Shown: positions 21,824 through 56,358 of the stretch, in pieces | Position numbering within the stretch: position 1 is the first letter of the stretch | Layout: each line of letters starts with the position of its first letter | Assembly (NCBI RefSeq): GCF_002854065.1 | Contig: NZ_CP024147.1 | Origin: Escherichia coli | GTDB lineage: Bacteria > Pseudomonadota > Gammaproteobacteria > Enterobacterales > Enterobacteriaceae | Strand: one strand, 5' to 3' | Length of the DNA stretch: 64,000 bases | The notes under the pieces: model-generated | The model's input: only the letters and a program-made list of their open reading frames with translations | Told to the model about the DNA's origin: nothing | Database searches by the model: none | Position numbers and translations under genes: made by a program

Positions 21824-21899
21824 GGCCCCTTAGCTCAGTGGTTAGAGCAGGCGACTCATAATCGCTTGGTCGCTGGTTCAAGTCCAGCAGGGGCCACCA
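21824..21899 (+). tRNA. ileX: tRNA-Ile (anticodon CAU, lysidine-type); island integration target
   Basis: 76 nt cloverleaf: acceptor ggcccct/aggggcc, anticodon loop ctCATaa, T-arm ggttcaagtcc, 3' CCA encoded; position between mug and yqjH. Confidence 0.85.
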
Positions 21900-21998: not shown

Positions 21999-22844
21999 TC
22001 AGATGGCTGATAGTTGCCCCGGATAATACTTCGCAATGATGTCATTTAGCCGATCAACCAGTTCTGGTTTTCTGAACGTGATATGCGCGGAGCCCTTCTT
22101 AAAGTATCTGATGCTGAACATCTCATCTTCATAGCAGGCTTTGCCCTGAACGGAGCGGATGTGATCATCCAGCCGAATAATGATATTTTCCCGGCTGTCG
22201 GGGATCGGTTTGCCGCTGAACAGGTGCAGCATTCTTTCCAGGTCGGCAAGTCGATCTGCCTGTTGCCCGGTGATAAGATGCAATCCCCACCGGTCCCACC
22301 TCACCAGATTGTTGACGATAATTTTACTGCCAAATTTACAGGGGCAATTGGTTTTGTAATCCCAGCTCAGTCCCCTGAAGACGTTGATGACCCCACGCTC
22401 AAACACTTCATCCTTATTCTGGTGTAGTTGCTCAAACGTACTCAGTATATTCTCTTCACTGATTTCCGGAAAATTATCGTACTCCAGTGACCGGTACCAT
22501 GTACCACGGGCCTGTGCATCCATTAAGGAAAGCATCCCTGAACGTTGCATCAGGTCACGCCAGATTTCACGGTCAAGGTTGCGGGTGATGGCTTTCATTG
22601 CCGTTTCAGGTTTCTCCATCAGCCAGCAACCGCAGCGAAAATCCTGTTTCATGGCCCAGTCCGGAGCAGTTTTACCTCCAATACTTTCTGTCATTGCTGA
22701 TATTTCAGCCAGTTGCCGGATAAGTGTGTCGATTTGCAGCAGTGTGCTCTTTCGTACAGCCAGAATGTGGCGGATACTGGTTGAGCAGATAACGTCCGTA
22801 TGCCCGTTGACCACTTCCGGACGGGCGATTGTGATGCCTGACAT
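21999..22844 (-). CDS. Island-associated hypothetical protein (possibly DUF4942-like)
   Basis: 281 aa ORF at the tRNA-proximal island end; family name from memory only. Confidence 0.45.
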   Translation of the reverse strand: MSGITIARPEVVNGHTDVICSTSIRHILAVRKSTLLQIDTLIRQLAEISAMTESIGGKTAPDWAMKQDFRCGCWLMEKPETAMKAITRNLDREIWRDLMQRSGMLSLMDAQARGTWYRSLEYDNFPEISEENILSTFEQLHQNKDEVFERGVINVFRGLSWDYKTNCPCKFGSKIIVNNLVRWDRWGLHLITGQQADRLADLERMLHLFSGKPIPDSRENIIIRLDDHIRSVQGKACYEDEMFSIRYFKKGSAHITFRKPELVDRLNDIIAKYYPGQLSAI

Positions 22845-22940: not shown

Positions 22941-23138
22941 TCACCGGTTCAGGTGCTGAAACTGCAGATGGCGCAGAGTTCGGACATCCTGTCGCGCCTG
23001 TTCGATACAGGGCAACAGTGCTGCCGAATCCGTTTTATCCTCATCGTTGTCAAAGATAATTTCCGATTCGCAGTCAATATTGTCCTGCAGCCACGCAATC
23101 AGAATATCCAGCGCCGTTTCTGTGGTTAATAATTTCAT
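22941..23138 (-). CDS. YeeW-like small protein (65 aa)
   Basis: MKLLTTETALDILIAWLQDNIDCESEIIFDNDEDK...; the longer 189-aa ORF-track frame looks like an artefactual upstream extension. Confidence 0.45.
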   Translation of the reverse strand: MKLLTTETALDILIAWLQDNIDCESEIIFDNDEDKTDSAALLPCIEQARQDVRTLRHLQFQHLNR

Positions 23139-23475
23139 CCAGTGTCTTTTGTCCTGATTACCAGTCGAAAGTGGGGAACCCCGGCAGACATTCTGCGCTG
23201 GCGTCCAGATGAATGAGACTGACGCCATAACGCCGGGTGAGTGTGACAACCAGACGACGGAACGTTTTTGACAGGCCCAGGCGCTTAAGCCGCAGAACCG
23301 GGTATGACCACGCATCGGTACGTAACAGATAGCCGCTACCTGTGAAATGAATCCATTCTGATTCACCAACGTCACTGGTCTGGTGTGACAGCGAGTGCAA
23401 CCAGGCGTTGTCCGTTTCCGTGATATGTGCGGTACTGCAGCGTATGCCGGCAAGGGTTGCAAATGGCGGAGGTGT

Positions 23476-23646
23476 TCAGGTTGACTGTTGGTCGGATTCC
23501 TCCACCACACGGAGTGAATAACCGTTTTCAGCGATGTTATTAATCAGTTCAGTGAGATTAACACCATCGACGTCAACGACAATGCGCCCCATGTTCAGTG
23601 CCTGCACGTTAATGCTGTCGGCTTCCAGCGTCAGGGCCAGTTTCAT
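23476..23646 (-). CDS. Small ORF (56 aa) translationally coupled to cbtA
   Basis: ATG overlaps the cbtA TGA stop in an ATGA junction; MKLALTLEADSINVQALNMGRIVVDVDGVNLTELINNIAENGYSLRVVEESDQQST. Confidence 0.4.
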   Translation of the reverse strand: MKLALTLEADSINVQALNMGRIVVDVDGVNLTELINNIAENGYSLRVVEESDQQST

Positions 23647-24020
23647 TGTTTCGCCCCCGGATGTTTACCCAGGGTAATGTTATTTACCGTTCTGTAATTG
23701 TCGCGGGTCATCAGGCCTGTCGCCCGGCGGGCCCGGAGGATATCGATGCTGTTTATTAACTGAGAACGGGTACAGGCGCTGAATCCCGGCTGGTCGGTAC
23801 GCACCAGTGCGTATTTTTCCACGAGAAAGTTCACCGCATCACACAGTGAAATGCCTGCCTCAATATGCTGCTCAATCACACGTTCATCGGCAAACGGTGT
23901 GTCATTCAGTGTGAGGCCGTAGTGCTGGTCCAGCAGTCGGGACAGCAGTATCTGCCAGATTTCAACAGGAGACGGGCGAGAACTGGCCGCCTGCCCGGGT
24001 AATACAGGTAATGTTTTCAT
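23643..24020 (-). CDS. cbtA: CbtA/YeeV-family toxin (cytoskeleton-binding toxin)
   Basis: 125 aa, MKTLPVLPGQAASSRPSPVEIWQILLSRLLDQHYGLTLNDTPF, close to recalled YeeV. Confidence 0.85.
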   Translation of the reverse strand: MKTLPVLPGQAASSRPSPVEIWQILLSRLLDQHYGLTLNDTPFADERVIEQHIEAGISLCDAVNFLVEKYALVRTDQPGFSACTRSQLINSIDILRARRATGLMTRDNYRTVNNITLGKHPGAKQ

Positions 24021-24108: not shown

Positions 24109-24462
24109 TTAATTTTTCATTTTGGGCATCGGATAAACAGCCAGATAAACGTAACCACAACTGCTGAGGGTATCGGCTTTGCAGGTCAGCCCTCTGGCAT
24201 ACAGCGTGACGGTATGCTGATGGCGGGGATTCAGTTCACCGCTGGTGAGCATGAGCTCCAGTTGTTTCATCAGCAGCGGAAAGGCCTGGTCCAGGTGGTA
24301 CGCATCTGCATTGCTGAACCGCCCTCTGATACCGGCGCGGTCTGCAAGGTAATGCAACCGGTTACCCTCCTGCACCAGACGTGCCCCGAAACAGGGCGTC
24401 ACTGTGCAGGGCAGCCCCCACCAGGGGCGGTCGTGATTGTCGTCGGGGAGTGTGTCTGACAC
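24109..24462 (-). CDS. cbeA: CbeA/YeeU-family antitoxin
   Basis: 117 aa, MSDTLPDDNHDRPWWGLPCTVTPCFGARLVQEGNRLHYLADRAGIRG; immediately upstream of cbtA. Confidence 0.85.
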   Translation of the reverse strand: MSDTLPDDNHDRPWWGLPCTVTPCFGARLVQEGNRLHYLADRAGIRGRFSNADAYHLDQAFPLLMKQLELMLTSGELNPRHQHTVTLYARGLTCKADTLSSCGYVYLAVYPMPKMKN

Positions 24463-24541
24463 GATAAAGTCCTCACAGAAAATCGGTTAAGAATGCTCCG
24501 GTGGTGGCGATAATTCTGCTCATCTGAATGCCCTTCCAGAC

Positions 24542-36973: not shown

Positions 36974-37085
36974 TGGAGCACCTCAAAAACACCATCATAC
37001 ACTAAATCAGTAAGTTGGCAGCATCACCCAGTTAAGCGTATTATTGGTGCAGAGCCCGGGCGTACCGGGCTCCGTTTTGAGGGGG

Positions 37086-37499
37086 TTATGTCCGGACCAG
37101 CGCTTTTTCTGACACCACCATTTTTATTTGCCCATGGTTAGTGAAGTGTACGCTCATCCTGTGGTTTTTTTGCAGTTGCTGATAGAGTTCATCAGGTATT
37201 GCTAAGCTCTCTGCATATTCTTGCGGCGTGTATTGGTATGCTGCATGATGCTGCTGTTTTTGATAACGCAGCTTGTTGTACAGCGCCCAGATAATTAACA
37301 CGACGGCATTCGTCACCGCCACGAAAAAATAGAACTGAAGTCTGCTTCGGGCATCGCTTTGCCAGTAATAACCCGACAGCAGATCCATGGCGAATAAGAA
37401 TATAAACAAAGCAAATAACGCCCACAGGATAGTCGTAGCTACATAATCAACCAATAAATGTACTGGCGATTGTCGGGTCGTAATAATTAAATTGTTCAT
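37086..37499 (-). CDS. pgaD: PGA synthesis protein PgaD
   Basis: 137 aa, [41 protein letters not shown]. Confidence 0.9.
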
Positions 37500-37500
37500 A

Positions 37501-38826
37501 TTAACCTCTCAGAATACCACGATCTGGGCTTATCCAACGGGCGCGTTGCTTTTTATGCATCAACATGACTCGTGTAAATGAAACCAACGTCGTTGCAAGA
37601 CTCAGTACCCAGAAAATGACCGGGAACCAGATAATCCAGAGAAGCGATGAAGCAAGATTATGCTCATAGCGATTCTCAATTACCAGACTGACAATAAATT
37701 GTACTAAACATAACGCACATAATAATATTCCTGCAGTATGTGTCTCGGCGATATGTGTCAATTCAATATTTAACGGTACACCTGCAAGCTGGACCACGTA
37801 AATAATGAAACCAACAAGACAGGTAAAGGCCCATATTGTCGTCAGGCAATATTCAAAAAACAACGGCCACATTCGTACGTTTTCTTTACGCCATAATCTG
37901 GTCATATTTTTGAGGAATACTTCTGCACCACCCTGGGCCCAGCGCAGGCGTTGTTTCCATAGCCCTTTTAATGTTTCCGGCATTAATATCCAGCACAGCG
38001 CCCGTGGCTCGTAAAAAATTGTCCACTGATTCAACTGCAGCTTCCAGCTAATATCAATATCTTCGGTGATCATATCGTCACTCCAGTAACCCACTTCAGC
38101 CAGGGCACTGCGACGAAATGCAGCGATAACGCCGGAAACAGTAAATACGTTTCCATAGATACGCTGGGTGCGTTTGATCAAACCAATAATTGAGGAAAAC
38201 TCGCCAACCTGAATTTTACCTATCAGAGTTGAACGTGTACGTATGCGAGGATTACCGGTTACAGCACCCACGCGAGGGTTGTATAACATTGGTTCAACAA
38301 TATACGCCGCCGCATCGCGATCTAATAACGCGTCGCCATCGATACACACCAGATATTCGCTTTTCGCCGCGGCTGCTCCGGTTTTAAGCGCAATGGCTTT
38401 CCCCTGGTTTTGCGCCAGATGAATGACTCGCAGACGGGGAATTTCCGCAGCCAGTTGATCCAGGATCGCACGGGTTTTGTCTGTTGAACCGTCATTTACA
38501 GCAATAACTTCAATGTTCTCATAACGCTGTGCCAGAGCTGCGTGTATGGTTTCCTCAACGTTTTTCTCCTCATTAAAACAGGGAATGATAATGGAGATAG
38601 ACGGATTATCTTTCAGCTGTGGAGCTGGTGCGTTTTCTCCCCACGGCCAATGGCGTTCGCGATAGGCCCAGAAATAGACTCCGCCAACAATCCACAGAAT
38701 GGACATAAAAAATGGCCAGAAGAAAACGAACCTCATCATCAATTCGCCAGAATGAAAGTACGCTACACATAGGGGTATGCATAACACCAGACATAATATA
38801 AAAAACGATACGATACGATTAATCAT
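37501..38826 (-). CDS. pgaC: Poly-beta-1,6-N-acetylglucosamine synthase PgaC (GT2)
   Basis: 441 aa membrane glycosyltransferase with QRLRWAQG-type motif. Confidence 0.9.
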
Positions 38827-40837
38827 TTTTCGGATACCAGGCTGTGGAAAACTCAGGACGAATAACGTCTATTTCAGGTTTGTTATGCAGGAAGTTATCG
38901 GGATAATAACCATAATTTTTCACTCCATTCAGTTGGAAAAGGCTCATCCAGTGAGCAAGTTTTTGCGAAGAAATAGCCTGATGCTGACCATTGTTCTGCC
39001 AGTTTTGTGCCTGTAATTCTAAAATAGATTTATCTTTTGCTTGAGGGATGCTTTTAATCTGATTGACCAGTTGTATTAACCATTGATCAGCAGATTTCTC
39101 ATCAACTCCTTCCATATAGGGCATTGCCATGATTGCCGTCCAGTCATAGCTTTGTAGAAAATCGGCATAGTTTTGGGCAAACCATGCTTCACTTTCTGGC
39201 TGCATAACGGGGAGGGCAAAAATATTTCTCGCAGTCTTAATTTGTGGGCCGCGAACAGCCTTGACTTTGGCGCTTAGCGCTAATGTGAAGTCTGTTAAGG
39301 CCTTGCGTTTAAATTGCGTCCAGCGTTTAAATTGCTCAGGATCCTCGCGGATTTCACGAATACTCGTCGCAAATCCTGCTTTCTTATAAGCAGCTATTGC
39401 TGGAGCACTGGCATCTTCGTAATCTGACAACACGGCATCGTCATGAAACAAAATGCCATCAAAAGACGCATGACCTGCAAGATCCTCATAAAGGGTACTA
39501 ATTTGTTCACGTACCCGGTCATCGAAAAGGGAGAGACGACGGTATTGCGCTGGATGAATTTGTGATGCTTGCTTATCAAATGGCAAATATTCCACCCGGG
39601 GTAATGCAGGATCTAAATCCCAACTCAATACCGGCATCCAGGCGTAAACGGCCACTCCGGCACGAGTCCTTAATTGCCATGCAACACGGTTAAACAAATC
39701 CGCTTTCATGGGTAACAGGCGATTAGGAAACCAGACCTCTTTAACCAGACCATCACCTGCTGGGTCGGCGAAAGCCTGCAAATACACACTGGAAATTTGC
39801 ATATCTTTCACCCGCTGAATCAACACATCCAGATTTCGCTCCAGCTGTTGGCGGTCAGCATCATAAACATAATCGAGATCGATGTGCATAACTCGCTCTG
39901 GTGATGTTTCCTGCACACCAATAATTTGCTGAGCAAACTCTTTAAGTGATGGATTATTGGCGATTAATACGCGCGGAATAGAATCTAACTGGGAAATATT
40001 TCCCAGTCCGGACTCCAGAGTGAAGAACATGTCATAACCCAGTTTTTTTAATTCCTCAATCGCAATACCGTTTGCTGCACCATAGGGCCAGACAAAAACC
40101 TGGGCATTTACGCCAGCATTTGTTTTCAACTTCTCGGTCATTTTTACGGCATCCTGACGAATGCGGCTGCGATATTCCGCTTCGGTTTCGTATCGCTCAT
40201 TATTTGAAAAATACATGCGATTAACAAAAGCGGGTAATTTGCTGCCAGTGGGATTAGCCTCAATACCGTAGTGAAAATTCCAGGTATGCGAGGCTATTTC
40301 AACCAACTTCGAACGTCCTATTTCACGCACTTGTTGCCAGGTGGCAAAATAGTCTCTGTCTACCATTTCATCGCCAAATTTAACTTGTTGATTCATCGGC
40401 GTGTCTATCCAACTGCCAACCGGTGCCCATAATGCGGGCCACTGGAATGCTTGCAGAATAGGGAATACACGGCTGTAAAAACTCTGAAATCCATCATCAA
40501 AGGAGAGTAAAACCGCTTTATTAGGTAGCGGTTTTCCCCCACGGTGAGCTTCCCGAATTTGGTCAACGCTGACGGGGTGATAGCCATTTTCACGAAGCCA
40601 TGCAAATTGTTCACGAAGCGCAGAAGTTCGCACTGACATAAAACGCTGATCAGCAGTATCGTCTTCAACATTATGCCAGGAGATGGCTACAAAGTTATTT
40701 TGTGGCCACGGATGTTCTGCCTTTAAAGATTCTCGACTTTGTGGTGGCGTAAACTTATTGTTTTGATGATTAAAACATGCAGAAAGCATAGCAATGCTAA
40801 TCAACAAAAACAGATATCTTATTCCTTTACGTAACAT
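38819..40837 (-). CDS. pgaB: PGA N-deacetylase lipoprotein PgaB
   Basis: 672 aa with lipobox-like N-terminus (LSAC). Confidence 0.9.
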
Positions 40838-40845
40838 AATGATCC

Positions 40846-43266
40846 TTAAAATTTGAATGTCATATCAAATTCAACATATAAATTATGCTCTCTGTTGCCG
40901 TCATAAGGCCGCTTTTCCCAACGTACCGTTGCACCGGCATTTATTACGTCATTCCACGCAACGCGTTGCCCATACCCCAGTTGTGTAACTAGATCGGTAC
41001 CATAATTTTTTTGCCATGAGGTACCAGCGCCTGCGCTAAATATTTGCTGCCAGCTATTCTCGTATTTACGCCACAATAAATGGCTTGCCTCCAGTGCCGG
41101 AACAATATCGAGCGTTTTTTCCGGGTTAAAATAGGGGGTGTCTTTTTTTGTATTCTGGCCGTAATAAATTGTGGGCTGAAAATCAATAATCAGTCGGGAT
41201 GAAGACCACATCCGTTCACTACCATTGATAAATACTTCGTGACGTTGGTTTCCATCAGAAAAATCAGTAAATGCCCATGAACTGCTGTATTGACGACGCT
41301 CATTCTGATACCAGCGTAAATATGCCTGAGCACTGTTGCCGGTTATGCCATTTTTCATTGCCCGTAGGGGGACTCGATGAGAGATGCGTTCCAGTTCAGC
41401 ACCAAGTCGCCAGTTGTCGTTAAAATCGTACCAGCCTGATAAACGTGCACCGGGTTTATGTTCGCCATTAAAATAACGTCCAGCAAATTCTGCTTCCAGC
41501 CAGATGTCGCGCGAACGCCATTCGAGGCCAGTTAACCAGTCACGAACAATCCCTTTCCCCTCGCTGAATTGACCATCAGCATAGCCAAAACCAGCAAAAG
41601 CACGCCAGTTTTCATTCAGCGGTGGTGAGTACACAACGCTGGTAAAATTCACATCATGTTTGCCATTATCCGGACCTTCGGAATCCAATCCAGAAGAACC
41701 TGAAATACGTAGTTCAGCCATGTCATGTACTTCAAGCGCACGCTGTATACGTTTTACCGCGGGGGCTTCAGGATTGCGGGTGACCACATCTTCAGTTAAT
41801 ACTTTCGCCTGTTTCCACTCCTGCAATGTTAATGCATTCCAGGCCTGTTCAACCTCCAGCAGTATATTTCTTGGCTCAAGTAGTTCGGCTTTTTTTAATT
41901 CTGTTTCTGCAGCACGAGGTAAACCACGAGCCTGTAATACGCTGGCGTAGTCGATGCGTAATCCCTGATTACCCGGTGCGTTATTGCTCATATTTCGGGT
42001 TATTGCTTCAGCTTGTGGTAAATCATTACCGTATTGCGCAGCCGCTGAAAGGAACGAATAACCCTGTAGCCACTTGTCATTAGGTATCGTTACAGGAGAA
42101 CCCATAATCCGACGGTATGGAGATGCTGTAGTAATGGTGTGATCAGTGAGCATTAACACCCCACTATAATTCTCACTTTCCAGATGGCTGTAAAAGAGAT
42201 CTGCACGCTCTTCTTCGGATAATTCAATATTTGGTTGTGCCTGGTGATAGAACAGTTGGGTCATCATCGCTTGTGCTTTTCCCGGTTGACGATCGTGCAG
42301 ATAAGCGGAAGCAACCCAATACTGTGCCCAGGGGGGAACAGATTGCCCTGTATTTTGTAAATGCTGATAATGAGAAATAACATCTTTGTAGCGTTCGCGG
42401 GTTAACAACGCGCCAAGATGGTCAACCTGAATACGCTGGTATTGTGCAATTCGGTCTGGGTTGTTTTGCCACAGAATATCTAATGCGGTGTATTGGGCGA
42501 GGGCGCGATCGGCAATGGCATAGCGTTCACTTTCACTGCGCGTAGGCATAAATGACAGTCTGACCAATTCGGCATGAATATCAGCGCGGATATCCGGCGT
42601 TAAATTGGCATCGTCAATGGCGGCAGAAAGCTGATTATTACGTAATGCCTGTACGTATTCTTCCGTATATTGCGTAGAGGAATTTTCAGGTAATGATTCT
42701 GTCATTGCCCGTAATTCATCTTGATGACGACCTGCCAGTTTATAGATATAGGCTTCTGCGAGTAAATTGGCTTTGTCAGGTGTACCGGACTTAATCTGCT
42801 GAAGTTTAACCAGTGCAGTGTCATAGTGACCCGCATCTGCCAGGGTTAAAATTTGTCCCCGTTGATAATCTTTATTTTGCGGCTCCAGAGAGAGAGTCTT
42901 TTGCCACAGTGTCAGTGAGTTTTGCCATTGCTGCATGTTACGATAAGCGATGGCGGCAGCCGCATAAGCGCGCGCGGGTAATTGCTGGTGACGGTAGCGG
43001 TTGTAAACGCTAATAACCTGTTTATCTTGTCCAGCCCATAAGGCAATCTGTAGCCAGTCAGCAATCTGGTTATTACTGAGTACAGACTTTTGTGCAAACC
43101 ATGTTAAAGCTGGCTGAGTATTACCCTTGCGAGCTTCAATAATCAATGCATCATAGGCGTTATTAACTGCACTATTCGCAACGGGACTCGACGCTAAAAA
43201 TGCAGCGGTAAGAAAATTCAAAACCAATTTGGTTTTTGGGCACCTTTTTTTACTACTTGAATACAT
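40846..43266 (-). CDS. pgaA: PGA export outer-membrane porin PgaA (TPR plus beta-barrel)
   Basis: 806 aa, MYSSSKKRCPKTK... ending ...EFDMTFKF. Confidence 0.9.
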   Translation of the reverse strand: MYSSSKKRCPKTKLVLNFLTAAFLASSPVANSAVNNAYDALIIEARKGNTQPALTWFAQKSVLSNNQIADWLQIALWAGQDKQVISVYNRYRHQQLPARAYAAAAIAYRNMQQWQNSLTLWQKTLSLEPQNKDYQRGQILTLADAGHYDTALVKLQQIKSGTPDKANLLAEAYIYKLAGRHQDELRAMTESLPENSSTQYTEEYVQALRNNQLSAAIDDANLTPDIRADIHAELVRLSFMPTRSESERYAIADRALAQYTALDILWQNNPDRIAQYQRIQVDHLGALLTRERYKDVISHYQHLQNTGQSVPPWAQYWVASAYLHDRQPGKAQAMMTQLFYHQAQPNIELSEEERADLFYSHLESENYSGVLMLTDHTITTASPYRRIMGSPVTIPNDKWLQGYSFLSAAAQYGNDLPQAEAITRNMSNNAPGNQGLRIDYASVLQARGLPRAAETELKKAELLEPRNILLEVEQAWNALTLQEWKQAKVLTEDVVTRNPEAPAVKRIQRALEVHDMAELRISGSSGLDSEGPDNGKHDVNFTSVVYSPPLNENWRAFAGFGYADGQFSEGKGIVRDWLTGLEWRSRDIWLEAEFAGRYFNGEHKPGARLSGWYDFNDNWRLGAELERISHRVPLRAMKNGITGNSAQAYLRWYQNERRQYSSSWAFTDFSDGNQRHEVFINGSERMWSSSRLIIDFQPTIYYGQNTKKDTPYFNPEKTLDIVPALEASHLLWRKYENSWQQIFSAGAGTSWQKNYGTDLVTQLGYGQRVAWNDVINAGATVRWEKRPYDGNREHNLYVEFDMTFKF

Positions 43267-43772
43267 CCTGTATTACTCCATGTATTGCAAAAATACTCTC
43301 TTCGCGAATGTCCAGTTGGCTGAAAAGAAAAGACTTATTCACATCAAAAACCCGTAATTAAACGAGGAATAAAGACGCTAATTGTTGATAGTGAGATGAA
43401 GAAATGGTGAGCTGAGTGTTCCTATCAAATCCTTTACTTTCCTCGAAAATCCATCCCAAAAGGGAAGGACTACGGGGATTCTGCATAATTCCCTATGCGT
43501 CTTTCAAGGTAATAAAGGATTAAAATAATTAAATCAGTAAATTCCGAGTGGTGATTTCGGATTTTTCGAAAACCCTGATTCAATGCGGTGTTGCAGCATT
43601 ATTTTCTGTAATAATTACTCTTGATGACTATATGAATTATTGTTTTATGGGGGGGTATAATGATTTATGAGTTTTTACAACTTATTGCAGTAGTGAATCT
43701 GTAAAATATTAAGATGGTGATTGTTTACCTGTGTAACTATGCTCGTTAGGGAAGGTGCGAACAAGTTCCTGA

Positions 43773-43943
<171 letters not shown>

Positions 43944-43956
43944 TAGTGACTCCAAC

Positions 43957-44460
43957 TTACTGATAGTGTTTTATGTTCAGATAATGCCCGATGACCTTGT
44001 CATGCAGCTCCACCGATTTTGAGAACGACAGTGACTTCCGTCCCAGCCTTGCCAGATGTTGTCTCAGATTCAGGTTATGTCGCTCAATGCGCTGAGTGTA
44101 ACGCTTGCTGATAACGTGCAGCTTTCCCTTCAGGCGGGGTTCATACAGCGGCCAGCCATCCGTCATCCATACCACGACCTCAAAGGCCGACAGCAGGCTC
44201 AGAAGACGCTCCAGTGTGGCCAGAGTGCGTTCACCGAAGACGTGCGCCACAACCGTCCTCCGTATCCTGTCATACGCGTAAAACAGCCAGCGCTGACGTG
44301 ATTTAGCACCGACGTAGCCCCACTGTTCGTCCATTTCCGCGCAGACGATGACGTCACTGCCCGGCTGTATGCGCGAGGTTACCGACTGCGGCCTGAGTTT
44401 TTTAAATGGCGGAAAATCGTGTTGAGGCCAACGCCCATAATGCGGGCAGTTGCCCGGCAT
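43957..44460 (-). CDS. insB: IS1 InsB (copy 2)
   Basis: 167 aa. Confidence 0.85.
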
Positions 44461-44654
44461 CCAACGCCATTCATGGCCATATCAATGATTTTCTGGTGCG
44501 TACCGGGTTGAGAAGCGGTGTAAGTGAACTGCAGTTGCCATGTTTTACGGCAGTGAGAGCAGAGATAGCGCTGATGTCCGGCAGTGCTTTTGCCGTTACG
44601 TACCACCCCGTCAGTAGCTGAACAGGAGGGACAGCTGATAGAAACAGAAGCCAC
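44379..44654 (-). CDS. insA: IS1 InsA (copy 2)
   Basis: 91 aa, near-identical to copy 1. Confidence 0.9.
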
Positions 44655-44686
44655 TAGAGCACCTCAAAAACACCATCATACACTAA

Positions 44687-45571
<885 letters not shown>

Positions 45572-45823
45572 TAAAAACCGGAAATAACGCCAGAAATGGT
45601 GGAAAAAATAGCCTAAATAGGCTGATTCGATGTGTTTGCGGGAAAAAAATCGGCCCAGATCCGCGAAATTTTAATCAACGAGTCAGCTTGGGAAGAAATG
45701 ACCTGCTTATTCGCACCTTCCTTAGTATCTATTATATTTAGCTATTTATATTGACAATGGCATGTTTATTATATCTATTAATAGTGTAAAGAGATTTTAC
45801 AGCCTTCAGGTTGGAGTGGTTTT

Positions 45824-47191
45824 ATGATGAAGGACTATTTTGGAATTGGTAGTACGGTATTTGTGAGTTTGTTGTTCGGGCTTGCATTTATTTTGGTGAA
45901 TAGTTGGTTTCATCAGCCGACTGTTAAGGAGACTGTTCCGCAATCGACATATCTGATGGTTATGATTGCTCTGTTTGTTATTGATATAATAGCATTCATT
46001 TTTATGCAGTTATATTTCATTTATGATCGTCGACAATTTTCAAACTGTATACTTGGTTTAGCCTTTCTTAGCTGTCTGATTTACTTCATTAAAACAGTCA
46101 TTATCATTCAGCAACCTATTGAGAGGGGGCTAACTAACAGCATTATTCAAAATGATACTGCTATTTATTATTTTTTCAGGCAGGTAAGCTTATGTTTATT
46201 GATTAATCTGGCGCTGGTAATTAAGTTGAATGAAAAAAATGATTTGTGTGAAAGGTGGCATAAAAGAATCGGTTTTTACATCAGTGTGATTTTTATAGTT
46301 GGCCTGCCCATTATTGCTTTCATATTTAGTAGCCAATGTGAGAACTATAGTTTAACTATAGCTGAGTTATTAAATAAAAATGGCCGAGTTGTGTGGAAAA
46401 CGTCTTATGTTATCGTGCTGATATTTATGTGGTTAATGCTGTTGGCAGTTAATTTATATTTCAATCGTTTGCGTAGTGATATCTGGAATGGGGTATCGGT
46501 GATTGCTTTTTGTGCTGTGCTATATAATGTCTCTCTTTTATTTATAGGGAGGTATAGTGTATCCATTTGGTATATTAGTCGAACTATTGAGTTGTTCAGC
46601 AAGTTAACAGTTATGGCGATATTCATGTGTCATGTATTCAGTGCGTTGCGCGTGACAAAGGATATTGCACATCGCGATCCATTAACCAATGTTTTTAACA
46701 GAAATTATTTTTTCAATGAACTGAAAAATCAATCAGCATTAGCCAAAAAAAAACCTTATTGCGTCATGATTATGGATATTGACCACTTCAAAAAAGTCAA
46801 TGACACCTGGGGGCATCCGGTTGGCGATCAAGTGATTAAAACAGTGGTGAAAATCATTGGGAAAAGTATACGGCCAAACGATCTTTTAGCACGCGTTGGC
46901 GGAGAAGAGTTTGGTGTTATGTTGACGGAGATCGATTATGAAAATGCGGAAGCCTTAGCTGAAAGGATTCGGGCAAATGTTGAGCGTTTGACGGGAGATA
47001 ATCCTGAATATGCCATCCCACAAAAAGTAACGATTAGCATTGGTGCCGTGGTGATGCATGGAAATTCGTTAAAACCGAATGAGATTTATCGGTTGGCTGA
47101 TAAAGCGCTTTATAACGCGAAAGAGTCAGGACGTAACAAGGTTGTTATGACGGAGGCAGAAAATCTTATGAACTGGAAGGATGATGATTAA
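45824..47191 (+). CDS. dgcT: Membrane-anchored diguanylate cyclase (GGEEF), DgcT/YcdT-like
   Basis: 455 aa; N-terminal transmembrane segments; RVGGEEFGVM active-site motif. Confidence 0.8.
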   Translation: MMKDYFGIGSTVFVSLLFGLAFILVNSWFHQPTVKETVPQSTYLMVMIALFVIDIIAFIFMQLYFIYDRRQFSNCILGLAFLSCLIYFIKTVIIIQQPIERGLTNSIIQNDTAIYYFFRQVSLCLLINLALVIKLNEKNDLCERWHKRIGFYISVIFIVGLPIIAFIFSSQCENYSLTIAELLNKNGRVVWKTSYVIVLIFMWLMLLAVNLYFNRLRSDIWNGVSVIAFCAVLYNVSLLFIGRYSVSIWYISRTIELFSKLTVMAIFMCHVFSALRVTKDIAHRDPLTNVFNRNYFFNELKNQSALAKKKPYCVMIMDIDHFKKVNDTWGHPVGDQVIKTVVKIIGKSIRPNDLLARVGGEEFGVMLTEIDYENAEALAERIRANVERLTGDNPEYAIPQKVTISIGAVVMHGNSLKPNEIYRLADKALYNAKESGRNKVVMTEAENLMNWKDDD

Positions 47192-47469: not shown

Positions 47470-48678
47470 ATGGCAGTATTGACGGATACTAAAGCAAGGC
47501 ATATCAAACCTGATGACAAACCATTGCCCCATGGGGGAATTACAGGACTGACTCTTCATCCTTCTTCAGTAAAGGGGAGGGGTAAATGGGTTTTTCGTTA
47601 TGTAAGTCCGGTGACACAAAAAAGGCGTAATGCTGGATTGGGAACTTATCCTGAGGTCAGTATTGCTGAAGCTGCACGTACTGCCCGGATAATGCGAGAG
47701 CAACTTGCTGCAGGTGATGATCCTCTGGAGATTAAAAAGGCTGAAGCTGAAAAAGTTGTTATCCCAACATTTGCCGATGCAGCCCGGCGTGTACATGCAG
47801 AATTGTCACCGGGATGGGAAAACCCAAAGCATGTCAGGCAGTGGTTGTCGACGCTTGAAAATTACGTGTTTCCTCAACTGGGAGCAAAAACGCTGGATAC
47901 GATTACGGCTGCGGACGTGGCAGAGACACTGCGTCCAGTCTGGTTGACCTTATCAGAAACGGCAAGCCGGGTTAAACAGCGCATTCATGTTGTTATGCAG
48001 TGGGGCTGGGCGCATGGTTTTTGTGTGGCGAATCCTGTTGATGTGGTTGATCATTTGCTTCCACAGCAATCAAGAGGACGTGATGAACACCAGCCGGCAA
48101 TGCCCTGGAGGCAGTTACCGCTTTTTGTGGCGACCAGTGTGTATACAGATGAACCTTATAATGTTACCCGGGCACTGTTATTAATGGTGATACTGACAGC
48201 AACCCGCTCGGGCGAAGCAAGGGGAATGCGCTGGGCTGAAATTGATTTTCATAAGCGGATATGGACGATACCCGCAGAAAGAATGAAAGCCAGGATACAG
48301 CATCGTGTTCCTTTATCCCGACAGGCCATTCACGTTCTGGAAAATATACGTGGTCTGCATGACGAACTGGTGTTTCCTTCTCCCAGAAAGCAGCAGATCC
48401 TTTCAGATATGGTGTTGACGAGTTTTCTGCGTAAAAAGAAGGCCATCAGTGATATACCCGGACGAGTGGCTACAGCACATGGTTTTCGTTCAACATTCAG
48501 GGACTGGTGTAGCGAACAGGGATATTCGCGGGATTTGGCGGAAAGGGCGCTTGCCCATACGCTGAAAAATAAGGTTGAGGCGGCATATCACCGGACTGAT
48601 CTGCTGGATCAGCGTATACCGATGATGCAGGCATGGGCGGATTATGTGATGTCTCAGATTATGGAAAACCAGCGATGA
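47470..48678 (+). CDS. Tyrosine recombinase / integrase (internal to island)
   Basis: 402 aa; C-terminal catalytic region with HGFRSTFRDW and AYHRTD (R-H-R-Y type). Confidence 0.85.
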   Translation: MAVLTDTKARHIKPDDKPLPHGGITGLTLHPSSVKGRGKWVFRYVSPVTQKRRNAGLGTYPEVSIAEAARTARIMREQLAAGDDPLEIKKAEAEKVVIPTFADAARRVHAELSPGWENPKHVRQWLSTLENYVFPQLGAKTLDTITAADVAETLRPVWLTLSETASRVKQRIHVVMQWGWAHGFCVANPVDVVDHLLPQQSRGRDEHQPAMPWRQLPLFVATSVYTDEPYNVTRALLLMVILTATRSGEARGMRWAEIDFHKRIWTIPAERMKARIQHRVPLSRQAIHVLENIRGLHDELVFPSPRKQQILSDMVLTSFLRKKKAISDIPGRVATAHGFRSTFRDWCSEQGYSRDLAERALAHTLKNKVEAAYHRTDLLDQRIPMMQAWADYVMSQIMENQR

Positions 48679-49254: not shown

Positions 49255-50311
49255 GGCTTTGTTGAATAAATCGAACTTTTGCTGAGTTGAAGGATCAGAT
49301 CACGCATCTTCCCGACAACGCAGACCGTTCCGTGGCAAAGCAAAAGTTCAAAATCACCAACTGGCCCACCTACAATAAAGCCCTCATCAACCGTGGCTCC
49401 ATAACTTTCTGGCTGGATGATGAAGCTATTCAGGCCTGGTATGAGTCAGCAACACCTTCTTCACGAGGCAGACCTCAGCGCTATTCTGACCTTGCCATCA
49501 CGACTGTGCTGGTCATTAAACGCGTATTCAGGCTGACCCTGCGCGCTGCGCAGGGCTTTATTGATTCCATTTTTTCTCTGATGAACGTTCCGCTACGCTG
49601 CCCGGATTACAGCTGTGTCAGCAGGCGGGCAAAGTCGGTTAATGTCAGTTTCAAAACGCCCACCCGGGGTGAAATCGCACACCTGGCAATTGATTCCACC
49701 GGGCTGAAGGTCTTCGGTGAAGGCGAGTGGAAAGTCAAAAAGCATGGCCAGGAACGCCGCCGTATCTGGCGTAAGCTGCATCTCGCCGTTGACAGTAAAA
49801 CACATGAAATCATCTGTGCAGACCTGTCGCTGAACAACGTTACGGACTCAGAGGCCTTCCCCGGGTTAATCCGGCAAACCCACCGGAAAATCAGGTCAGC
49901 CGCCGCCGATGGCGCTTACGATACCCGGCTATGTCACGATGAACTGCGGCGTAAGAAAATCAGCGCGCTTATCCCTCCCCGAAAAGGTGCGGGTTACTGG
50001 CCCGGTGAATATGCAGACCGTAACCGTGCAGTGGCTAATCAGCGAATGACCGGGAGTAATGCGCGGTGGAAATGGACAACAGATTACAACCGTCGCTCGA
50101 TAGCGGAAACGGCGATGTACCGGGTAAAACAGCTGTTCGGGGGGGCACTGACGCTGCGTGACTACGATGGTCAGGTTGCGGAGGCTATGGCCCTGGTACG
50201 AGCGCTGAACAAAATGACGAAAGCAGGTATGCCTGAAAGCGTGCGTATTGCCTGAAAACACAACCCGCTACGGGGGAGACTTACCCGAAATCTGATTTAT
50301 TCAACAAAGCC
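49255..50311 (+). mobile_element. IS903-group insertion sequence (IS5 family), 1057 bp, no target-site duplication
   Basis: 18-bp terminal inverted repeats ggctttgttgaataaatc / gatttattcaacaaagcc; flanks caggagata / actctgatc differ. Confidence 0.88.
49287..50255 (+). CDS. IS903-type DDE transposase
   Basis: 322 aa, ...TNWPTYNKALINRGSITFWLDDEAIQAWYE... Confidence 0.85.
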   Translation: MKDQITHLPDNADRSVAKQKFKITNWPTYNKALINRGSITFWLDDEAIQAWYESATPSSRGRPQRYSDLAITTVLVIKRVFRLTLRAAQGFIDSIFSLMNVPLRCPDYSCVSRRAKSVNVSFKTPTRGEIAHLAIDSTGLKVFGEGEWKVKKHGQERRRIWRKLHLAVDSKTHEIICADLSLNNVTDSEAFPGLIRQTHRKIRSAAADGAYDTRLCHDELRRKKISALIPPRKGAGYWPGEYADRNRAVANQRMTGSNARWKWTTDYNRRSIAETAMYRVKQLFGGALTLRDYDGQVAEAMALVRALNKMTKAGMPESVRIA

Positions 50312-51091: not shown

Positions 51092-51958
51092 CTAAGCGAG
51101 GTTCTTGTTTTCAAATTGTTCCGGACTGAGGCCGCCACACCAACTGTGCCGCCGCCACCGATTGTAATCACATTCGATATAATTAAACACCGTTGCCCGC
51201 ATTATTTCCCGGCTGATAAAGTGTTCTCCATGGATACATTCCACTTTCAGCGAATGAAAGAAGCTTTCCACGCAGGCATTATCGTAGCAGCAACCTTTTG
51301 CGCTCATACTTCCACGCAGATTATGCCGCTTCAGTTGCGCCTGATAATCTGCTGAACAGTACTGGCCTCCACGGTCCGTGTGAACGATAACGTTCCGGGG
51401 CCTCTTACGCCGCCACAGCGCCATCTGCAGGGCATCGCAGGCCAGTTGCGCCGTCATGCGTGGCGACATTGACCAGCCAATAACGGCACGTGACCACAGG
51501 TCAATGACCACTGCCAGATACAGCCAGCCTTCATCTGTACGTAAGTACGTGATGTCTCCTGCCCACTTCTGGTTCGGGCCACTGGCGTAAAAATCCTGCT
51601 CCAACAGATTTTCTGACACAGGCAGGCCGTGTGCGCGGTAGCTGACCGGGCTGAACTTCCGGGAGGCCTTTGCCCTCAGTCCCTGACGGCGCAGGCTTGC
51701 CGCCACGGTTTTTACGTTAAAGGGGTAACCCTGAGCACGCAGTTCATCCGTCAGGCGTGGGGCACCGTAACGCTGTTTTGACCGGGTAAAAGCCGCGAGG
51801 ACAACGCTGTCGCAGTGTTGGCGGAACTGCTGACGCGTGCTTATCCTTGTCCGCCGCTGACACCACGTATACCAGCCGCTGCGGGCCACCCGGAGCACGC
51901 GGCACATTGCTTTGATGCTGAACTCAGCCTGATGTTTTTCAATAAAGACATACTTCAT
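51092..51958 (-). CDS. insF: IS3 OrfB (InsF), DDE transposase
   Basis: 288 aa [38 protein letters not shown]. Confidence 0.88.
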
Positions 51959-54676: not shown

Positions 54677-56110
54677 TCAGAGGTCAAAGTTAGGTGCGAC
54701 ATACCACGTTTTTCCCTCAATAACCGGTACAACTCTGTTTTGTTCATACAGTAAATCCAGTAACCAATTGATTTTATCCTTTTTCCGGAAACGGTTCGGA
54801 CCACGCTGTAAAATGTCATTTTTTTTCATACAGGGGATCCCCTTCTCAATGCAATAGCTTTTTATCCAGTTAAAAAGTTCAAGCTCCTCTGGAATGAGTC
54901 GCACAGGTACGGTCAGGGCAGAGTTTTCAAACGTTAACGGACTGGATAACCGAACATACTCATTACCATACCATATTGCTAATTCTCTCGCCATTTCAGC
55001 AGTGTAGGGGGAAATGTCACCTTCCTCACCGCTAAAATGGTGAATAAGTCCTGCCAGTCTTGCCATATACTCTGCATTTTTAGCAGCATATTCTCTGAAG
55101 TCTCTTAAAGGCCCCAGAACCGACATCTTCGATTCCACATCGTTGTAATAGTCCGTCCAGATTCTGGCTGCCTGAGGAGAAAAGTGAAGGCAACGCCGCT
55201 CTCCCCTCATCGCCAGGCTTTCATCAATGAGTTCATTTATCCTCTGTTCAAACAAATCCTGATACTGTGATGAATAATTATCTCCTGTTATTATCCTTGT
55301 CCCCTGCGTTGATGTTGGTTGACACATCAAAAACCTTGCATGATGTCCCGACGTTTTCACAAGTTCTTTTTTTCGTGTACAAAAACCTTTGTGGTAAACA
55401 TCAGGCTGAACCATCACCGATATCGTCAGTCTTGGTTCCTTCAAAAAAATTCCGGGAGATGATTTCCTGTCGATGAAAAGAGAACCACCATCCCACAAAG
55501 AGTTAAGTATTCCCAGTTTACTCATTGCCCGGCTGTCAAAAATTATCCCACCTTCACTGGATACAAGAGCAAAAGAGCGATTGCTATCAGAATAATATTT
55601 TAACATTCCCTCTATCGTTGTATCATTAAAAATTGTTCGATGTATCTGTGGTGGAACAGGACACTTATTCAGATGTGTTTTAAGCTCTGATTCTGTTGTC
55701 TTATAATCTTTACCGGCACGAATCTCTTTATGAAGTTTTGACTCCAGTGCTTTTTGTTTTTGCTCCCATATTTCCTTTTCTGTACTGTAATTCTCAACCA
55801 GTTTCGCGTATTCTTCCGCCAGGGCTTCATCCCTGAGATAAAATGCTTTCATAAACACTTTATCCACGGTCGTTTTCCTTTCACCAGAATCAGCCAGAAT
55901 CATAGAGTAAATATTAGAGGACCCACGTAAATTTCCTGGCCTGCACACATCAACCTGATTCTGACAGGCAATTGACATCGCTGTTAATGCTGCAGTTATC
56001 GCCATAGCTATAGGTGTCTGTGTATTCTTTTGAGTTTCAATTATTGCATTTCTCGCCAGCGGTGGCATTGCATATATCGGACAAGGATTTTCTGGTGCAA
56101 GTAAGCACAT
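54677..56110 (-). CDS. YfjI-like DUF3987 protein (putative primase/replication protein of P4/PICI-like elements)
   Basis: Start chosen at MCLLAPENPCPIY by alignment with the duplicated 5' fragment; family from memory. Confidence 0.55.
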   Translation of the reverse strand: MCLLAPENPCPIYAMPPLARNAIIETQKNTQTPIAMAITAALTAMSIACQNQVDVCRPGNLRGSSNIYSMILADSGERKTTVDKVFMKAFYLRDEALAEEYAKLVENYSTEKEIWEQKQKALESKLHKEIRAGKDYKTTESELKTHLNKCPVPPQIHRTIFNDTTIEGMLKYYSDSNRSFALVSSEGGIIFDSRAMSKLGILNSLWDGGSLFIDRKSSPGIFLKEPRLTISVMVQPDVYHKGFCTRKKELVKTSGHHARFLMCQPTSTQGTRIITGDNYSSQYQDLFEQRINELIDESLAMRGERRCLHFSPQAARIWTDYYNDVESKMSVLGPLRDFREYAAKNAEYMARLAGLIHHFSGEEGDISPYTAEMARELAIWYGNEYVRLSSPLTFENSALTVPVRLIPEELELFNWIKSYCIEKGIPCMKKNDILQRGPNRFRKKDKINWLLDLLYEQNRVVPVIEGKTWYVAPNFDL

Positions 56111-56358
56111 AAATGCCTCTCTTTTCATTAATGGGTTAGTAAAGTAGCAGCAACTCCCGCTATAATAGCGAAAATAGCTGCTGTTCAGACCTAATGTTCT
56201 GAAAAATACAGAATATCTGTAGATCTGATGTTTAATAACCGATAAGGTTAATTCAGTTCAGACTGTGTTATTTACCACGAAATATCATTCATGTTTCTCA
56301 TTCTTAACACCTCCTAAAATTATTTCACTAACACCTTCCCCCCGGTCTTTTTCCTTTC

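Follow-up and report, generated by a model that had tools for sequence, protein, structure and literature searches.

The locus described here lies in a 64,000-nucleotide stretch of Escherichia coli DNA (contig NZ_CP024147.1), which we refer to as the window and whose positions are used throughout. Genes for DUF987 and RadC-like proteins precede the toxin-antitoxin pair cbeA-cbtA, and the genes in this part of the window are all carried on the minus strand. The gene for the type IV antitoxin CbeA (YeeU family; positions 24109 to 24462; Pfam PF06154, CbeA_antitoxin, E value of 4.3e-53) is placed 5' of cbtA, the same order as in all annotated relatives. Its predicted product has 117 amino acids, compared with 122 amino acids in annotated relatives; the GTG at 24462 is the sole possible start of this open reading frame (ORF), since an in-frame TAA stands at 24489 to 24487 with no ATG in between. 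The toxin gene cbtA (positions 23643 to 24020) encodes the long-C-terminus form of the toxin with 125 amino acids, and its match to the CbtA_toxin family (PF06755, E value of 3.2e-58) spans profile positions 1 to 112 of 112; RefSeq lists its relatives as "cytoskeleton-binding toxin CbtA." Both proteins show near full-profile Pfam coverage, and the cbeA-cbtA pair in the window is intact.

Downstream of cbtA follow a DUF5983 (yeeW-like) reading frame (positions 23158 to 23646), a gene of 65 codons named for DUF957 (positions 22941 to 23138), and a DUF4942 gene (positions 21999 to 22844; PF13708, E value of 3.6e-69), which is the last island gene before a tRNA gene. The tRNA (positions 21824 to 21899, plus strand; called by ARAGORN and matching the Rfam tRNA family with 73 bits) has a CAT anticodon and is of the ileX type (tRNA-Ile2); located by mug and rpoD, it is the integration site of the island. 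The equivalent tRNA in E. coli NT1F31 is called tRNA-Ile by the annotation pipeline PGAP.

The junction between cbtA and the DUF5983 frame

The cbtA stop codon TGA (23645 to 23643) and an ATG (23646 to 23644) share 4 nt, so that stop and start overlap as ATGA (positions 23643 to 23646), and the minus-strand sequence at the junction reads ...GCGAAACAATGAAACTG. Our reading and translation of the sequence bear out the first-pass annotation, which had described this overlap and the 56-codon frame that it opens. Within the 3' end of cbtA, 7 nt 5' of the ATG, lies a Shine-Dalgarno-like element, GGGGG (positions 23654 to 23658), identified from the sequence and from a comparison of the junction in 19 loci; its function as a ribosome-binding site is putative. 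At this distance from the ATG, most of the E. coli loci compared carry GGAGG, whereas GGGGG is found in the window and in loci L004 and L005, so that one lineage holds both a weakened ribosome-binding site and a nonsense codon.

The junction has the anatomy of a coupled gene pair, with an overlapping stop and start and a Shine-Dalgarno-like element inside the upstream gene. From this anatomy and its conservation, we infer that translation of the DUF5983 gene is coupled to that of cbtA. Ribosomes that end translation of cbtA would re-initiate at the overlapping AUG (termination-reinitiation), and the downstream protein would consequently be made in step with the toxin.

A two-domain gene interrupted at codon 57

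The 56-codon frame (positions 23476 to 23646, minus strand) translates as MKLALTLEADSINVQALNMG...DQQST and closes at the TGA at 23478 to 23476. Residues 4 to 56 match the family DUF5983_N (PF25638; E value of 1.6e-30; 105 bits against a cutoff of 27), which places the frame well above chance expectation and identifies it as the DUF5983 N-terminal domain plus part of a linker. Three-frame translation showed that the frame runs on beyond this TGA for 105 codons, to a TAA at 23160 to 23158. The remainder (codons 58 to 162 plus TAA; positions 23158 to 23475, minus strand) contains an 80-amino-acid sub-ORF (23400 to 23158) that is in frame with the N-terminal domain and matches the DUF5983 C-terminal domain (PF19419; E value of 6.3e-14; 52.5 bits against a cutoff of 27). 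Because the sub-ORF is in frame and matches the C-terminal domain, the unit is one gene of 489 nt and 162 codons with one internal stop (positions 23158 to 23646) and not a gene of 56 codons.

The first-pass annotation had listed two longer frames as implausible competitors of the 56-codon frame, and both have to be read differently. The frame at 23158 to 23400 does not overlap the 56-codon frame at all; it is the downstream, C-terminal part of the same gene in the same frame. The other, an ORF of 189 amino acids at 22941 to 23510, is spurious in its 5' part: the real DUF957-named gene (23138 to 22941) starts within it, 22 nt 3' of the DUF5983 gene.

The extent of the whole gene was confirmed by a tblastn search with the intact 162-amino-acid protein of E. 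coli M8 (WP_032215286.1), which aligned with the window over residues 1 to 162 in one frame with 97.5% identity. The M8 gene is annotated in RefSeq as "DUF5983 family protein" (the family is also named Aec77), carries both PF25638 and PF19419 intact, and overlaps cbtA by 4 nt; the window shares with it the neighboring genes cbeA, cbtA, DUF957, and DUF4942 around the DUF5983 gene. Altogether, 5 of 163 codons differ between the two genes: codon 57, which is TGC in M8 and TGA in the window, and four others. Codon comparison likewise gives TGC (Cys) in the intact relatives at the position of the premature TGA (23476 to 23478), and the stop at codon 57 is a derived, single-base nonsense change. A functional DUF5983 family member is expected to have an uninterrupted ORF of about 162 codons, and the frame in the window is broken at codon 57; the window copy is a disrupted member of the DUF5983/YeeW family. 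The DUF5983 frame itself is a real coding gene under purifying selection: between divergent paralogues, dN/dS is approximately 0.12 to 0.24 overall and lies below 1 in both domains.

When the intact protein was modeled with AlphaFold2 (pLDDT of 87), it showed a small beta-beta-alpha N-terminal domain (residues 1 to 50), a low-confidence linker (residues ∼51 to 60), and a C-terminal domain (residues 62 to 162, pLDDT of 89 to 98). Codon 57 falls in the disordered linker, and outside Escherichia the Cys at this position is not conserved. With the stop placed between the two domains, an N-terminal product of 56 amino acids is plausible.

Taken together, the 56-codon frame is very probably the 5' third of a DUF5983 (yeeW-family) gene that was truncated by a TGC-to-TGA change at Cys57, a recent pseudogene allele that has been spread by recombination. 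One C-to-A substitution in the coding strand converted the Cys57 codon within the linker, and translation of the TGA57 allele would halt after 56 residues, releasing the N-terminal domain only. The remainder of the gene is not expected to be translated, and the C-terminal domain would presumably appear just in traces, by rare read-through of the UGA.

Conservation of the gene and spread of the TGA57 allele

We surveyed 80 cbtA loci across species, with one genome per species. A DUF5983 gene lies downstream of cbtA in 8 of them, namely, in the E. albertii reference, in two E. coli-like contigs binned into gut MAGs, and in five other genera (Serratia, Klebsiella, Erwinia, Winslowiella, and Rouxiella); the other 72 loci are without the gene. 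In all eight, DUF5983 starts exactly 1 nt before the cbtA stop and the product has 162 to 168 amino acids. Five of the eight have ATGA and three have TTGA; the TTGA form is that of Erwinia, Winslowiella, and Rouxiella, and the ATGA form is seen in Serratia and Klebsiella as well as in E. coli and E. albertii. All RefSeq examples that we fetched are annotated with a 4-nt overlap. The DUF5983-positive loci correspond to a subclade of CbtA with a long C terminus (124 to 127 amino acids), and CbtA in the remaining 72 loci mostly has 103 to 113 amino acids. In CP4-type genomic islands of Enterobacterales, the yeeW-family gene is the one found next after long-form cbtA; across the cbtA family as a whole, the two genes do not generally co-occur.

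Within E. coli, the pairing is common. A 951-nt query spanning cbtA and DUF5983 matched 4,938 genomes, 3,671 of them with at least 80% coverage, and six evenly spaced samples were all intact, with 162 to 163 amino acids and the 4-nt overlap with cbtA. A population study from 2023 found the DUF5983 partner in every sequence type but ST11, with its location always downstream of CbtA (PMC10790755), and a 2026 preprint reports DUF5983 and an adjacent AntiFam-listed domain consistently beside cbtA/cbeA. In one E. coli strain, 2013C-4465 (L002:1531-2392), cbtA is annotated as frameshifted and the overlapping DUF5983 gene is intact; this is the reverse of the case in the window, so that either member of the cbtA/DUF5983 pair can decay independently.

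These data also bear on the possibility, suggested by the first-pass annotation, that the 56-codon frame is an independent small-protein gene that serves the cbtA/cbeA module as a dedicated third component. The ATGA overlap and the clean ORF would suit such a gene, and gene callers have indeed called it: the exact 56-amino-acid product is recorded in public data from five independent contigs. Yet the homologues in all intact loci have 162 to 168 amino acids, the stop is a derived single-base change beyond which the ORF continues in frame into a conserved domain, and 72 of 80 cbtA loci do without the gene, and we consider an independent small gene extremely unlikely. What holds from the earlier proposal is that a gene under purifying selection starts at the ATGA, that the 4-nt overlap is present in all DUF5983-bearing loci examined, and that DUF5983, where it occurs with CbtA, is its downstream neighbor. 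The parts that do not hold are the 56-codon extent, which is neither that of the gene nor conserved in its homologues, and a general role in the module, since the gene accompanies a minority of cbtA loci and its C-terminal domain also occurs without cbtA.

The frequency of the TGA57 allele was determined with 43-mer queries centered on codon 57, a length that forces any megablast seed across this codon. The TGA 43-mer was found in 28 of 5,426 complete E. coli genomes, and the TGC 43-mer with identical flanks was found in 218 genomes of the same set. The single-base difference from the closest intact relative could in principle reflect a sequencing or assembly error in an intact gene. However, the same TGA recurs in those 28 complete genomes and in independent NCBI, ENA, and Logan assemblies, and the stop is therefore real; an error, whose probability we regard as negligible, was ruled out. 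In strains EC1515, C9, LD27-1, and S1-INA-02-B, the identical allele is entered in RefSeq as "DUF5983 family protein; internal stop," and by RefSeq and annotation standards the TGA57 gene is a pseudogene. Two of the RefSeq pseudogenes, CDH89_RS20165 (EC1515) and RG31_RS15645 (C9), have the same 43-mer, the same extent of 489 nt, and the same core haplotype as the window copy.

The TGA allele was encountered in five or more genomic contexts: by an integrase and a LysR gene, at tRNA-Ser/ghrA, by cadC, by a type II secretion system (T2SS) gene, and, in the window, at the tRNA(CAT) by mug/rpoD. The RefSeq TGA pseudogenes occupy the first three of these sites and thereby differ in position from the window copy. 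Around the stop, the nine aligned TGA copies all have the same core haplotype, with a private S50F substitution in L010 as the sole exception, and their 5' and 3' flanks are mosaic. A common core with mosaic flanks suggests that a single mutation was spread by recombination among paralogous islands, and the alignment thus favors a single origin with recombination over repeated mutation. The presence of the allele in several islands shows that it is at least tolerated. None of the nine TGA alleles is disrupted further 3' of the stop, which would fit a young pseudogene homogenized by recombination and would equally fit continued expression.

One form of continued expression would be recoding of the UGA at codon 57, as selenocysteine or by programmed read-through, so that the full-length protein is still made. 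E. coli has the selenocysteine machinery, a UGA at the position of a Cys codon is the classic Cys/Sec signature, and the frame beyond it is intact in 9 of 9 TGA alleles. This reading nevertheless finds no counterpart in the RNA: the UGA is not followed by a SECIS-like hairpin (a 70-nt segment around and 3' of it folds with a minimum free energy of −11 kcal/mol, z = +0.5, and 138 of 200 shuffled sequences fold at least as well) or by any Rfam match. The codon is flanked by the same sequence as in the TGC alleles, which are far more common than the TGA alleles, and the location of Cys57 in a disordered linker, together with its lack of conservation outside Escherichia, makes a catalytic Cys/Sec role implausible. 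We rejected recoding on the basis of the missing hairpin, the missing Rfam match, and the nonconserved linker Cys, and consider it very unlikely.

Alternative domain partners, K-12 yeeW, and the island

In addition to the two-domain gene, a second form of the locus exists. In E. coli NT1F31 (L105:4130-4555, minus strand), the DUF5983 N-terminal domain is fused in frame, through a different linker, to a DUF957 protein. The fused form is a continuous ORF of 140 amino acids without the C-terminal domain; its exact sequence was found on 149 contigs and is named "CP4-44 prophage" or "Aec78," and PGAP splits it into a partial DUF5983 gene and a DUF957 gene. The form is present in many other strains, including CFT073. 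With these two forms, the N-terminal domain, which overlaps cbtA, is the constant part of the locus and has two alternative C-terminal partners.

The yeeW gene of K-12 (CP4-44 prophage; 64 amino acids; WP_000988600.1, "DUF5983 family protein"; DH1, L003:1902-2222) is a decayed copy of the N-terminal domain/DUF957 form. It resembles the window copy in its position, in the 4-nt overlap with the cbtA stop, and in its homologous N-terminal domain, and both are truncated versions that retain only this domain. The routes of decay differ: K-12 yeeW derives from the fusion with DUF957, with a stop in the linker of that form and a deletion in DUF957, whereas in the window the canonical two-domain form carries just one nonsense mutation, beyond which its frame is intact. 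The K-12 unit has been given as yeeRST-cbeA-cbtA-yeeW, with yeeW last (table in PMC7660256).

For the 65-amino-acid protein named for DUF957 in the window, the assignment comes from translation and from its RefSeq counterpart, WP_000772024.1 ("DUF957 domain-containing protein"). No Pfam match was obtained at an E value of ≤0.01 for the 64-amino-acid form or ≤1e-5 for the 65-amino-acid form, and searches of PHROGs, NCBIfam, and PADLOC gave no match at an E value of ≤0.01. The protein may be the AntiFam ANF00264 domain, which has been argued to be a real dimeric protein (2026 preprint).

The constancy of the N-terminal domain keeps alive, at low probability, the reading that this domain alone is a functional unit coupled to cbtA, a small adaptor or modulator of CbtA, and that the 56-amino-acid product is still active. 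Several observations are in line with it: the common DUF957 form does without the C-terminal domain, K-12 yeeW retains just the N-terminal domain, the stop lies exactly within the linker between the domains, the TGA allele has persisted and reached at least five island contexts, and in this analysis PF25638 was seen solely beside cbtA, whereas the C-terminal domain was found elsewhere, too. Part of this pattern would, however, arise in any case, as every disruptive mutation will by default leave an N-terminal ORF behind and the 5' end is shielded by the overlap with cbtA. Moreover, only 28 of 5,426 genomes carry the allele. When CbtA and DUF5983 were modeled with AlphaFold2 as one chain joined by a GS linker, no complex was predicted (pTM of 0.46; the pLDDT of the N-terminal domain fell to 32 to 51), although this test is weak given a shallow paired alignment of approximately five lineages. 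The literature on yeeW and CbtA/CbeA yielded no functional experiment on the DUF5983 gene or on an effect of it on CbtA toxicity.

An extension of this idea, in which the ∼50-residue N-terminal domain is an adaptor tied one-to-one to the toxin, acts on CbtA, and has interchangeable C-terminal partners (the DUF5983 C-terminal domain or DUF957), is doubtful. If it were true, the alleles that encode only the N-terminal domain (TGA57 and K-12 yeeW) would keep their function, and long-form CbtA/CbeA would be a three-part system. The characterized CbtA/CbeA type IV toxin-antitoxin system has two components, and most cbtA loci are without a DUF5983 gene; in the window, by comparison, the DUF5983 gene is in the same transcription unit and start/stop-overlapped with the toxin gene.

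The C-terminal domain has a wider distribution. DUF5983 is a small family, for which a set of 1.84 billion proteins yields 225 representatives at 50% identity, and C-domain-only homologues were detected by tblastn on 2,726 plasmids, mostly from Klebsiella, 2,231 of which are predicted to be conjugative. These homologues share ∼32 to 40% identity with the C-terminal domain and, unlike the gene in the window, have no N-terminal domain and no cbtA. In IncF-type leading regions, we observed C-domain-only DUF5983 genes of ∼100 to 110 amino acids with no cbtA nearby (L098:4974-5303 on pKPN3, NC_009649.1; L096:3001-3306). The gene order on pKPN3 is DUF932, DUF5983 (WP_011977736.1), SLT, traM, in the leading region adjoining the transfer genes, and in the leading regions of conjugative plasmids the C-terminal domain alone also adjoins oriT. 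It further occurs in phages: a Foldseek search of the viral structure library BFVD yielded only phage "DUF5983 domain-containing" proteins (E value of 9e-6 for the C-terminal domain), and no structural match was informative on function. As it is found on plasmids and in phages without cbtA, the C-terminal domain is a general mobile-element module that is independent of CbtA.

Among the databases searched for function, PADLOC gave no match for DUF5983, DUF957, DUF4942, CbtA, or CbeA that would link them to a defense system, PHROGs matched only a family of unknown function, and NCBIfam gave no match. Our best guess is that the intact protein is a mobile-element accessory protein that is co-expressed with the toxin and not an antitoxin.

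The yeeW/DUF5983 family, its position after cbtA, and the exact disrupted allele are already known from Pfam, RefSeq, and the literature; the value of the present analysis is the corrected reading, by which an apparent new toxin-coupled small gene is part of a single gene that a stop codon interrupts. Conservation of the cbtA-yeeW overlap extends from E. coli to Erwinia, yet the published CbtA/CbeA experiments used K-12, with its truncated yeeW.

The island around the locus shows further rearrangements. The genes pgaC/B/A and a MASE4-GGDEF gene (positions 34290 to 47191) lie inside an element of ∼39.5 kb between the tRNA(CAT) and yqjH; on the K-12 map, these genes are normally found near serX. 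In the window, they directly follow an hsdR of only 683 amino acids. NT1F31 has the same layout at tRNA-Ile, but its hsdR is full length and IS1 lies between it and pgaD, and the hsdR-IS1-pgaD junction was found with at least 80% query coverage in 11 genomes. This layout points to an IS1-associated composite island. The inserted region of the window also contains two tyrosine-recombinase integrase genes (positions 47470 to 48678 and 60056 to 61372), insertion sequence (IS) transposase genes (positions 49287 to 50255 and 51092 to 51958), and a DUF3987 gene (positions 54677 to 56128); the two integrases and the IS transposases suggest that at least two elements are stacked at the same tRNA site.
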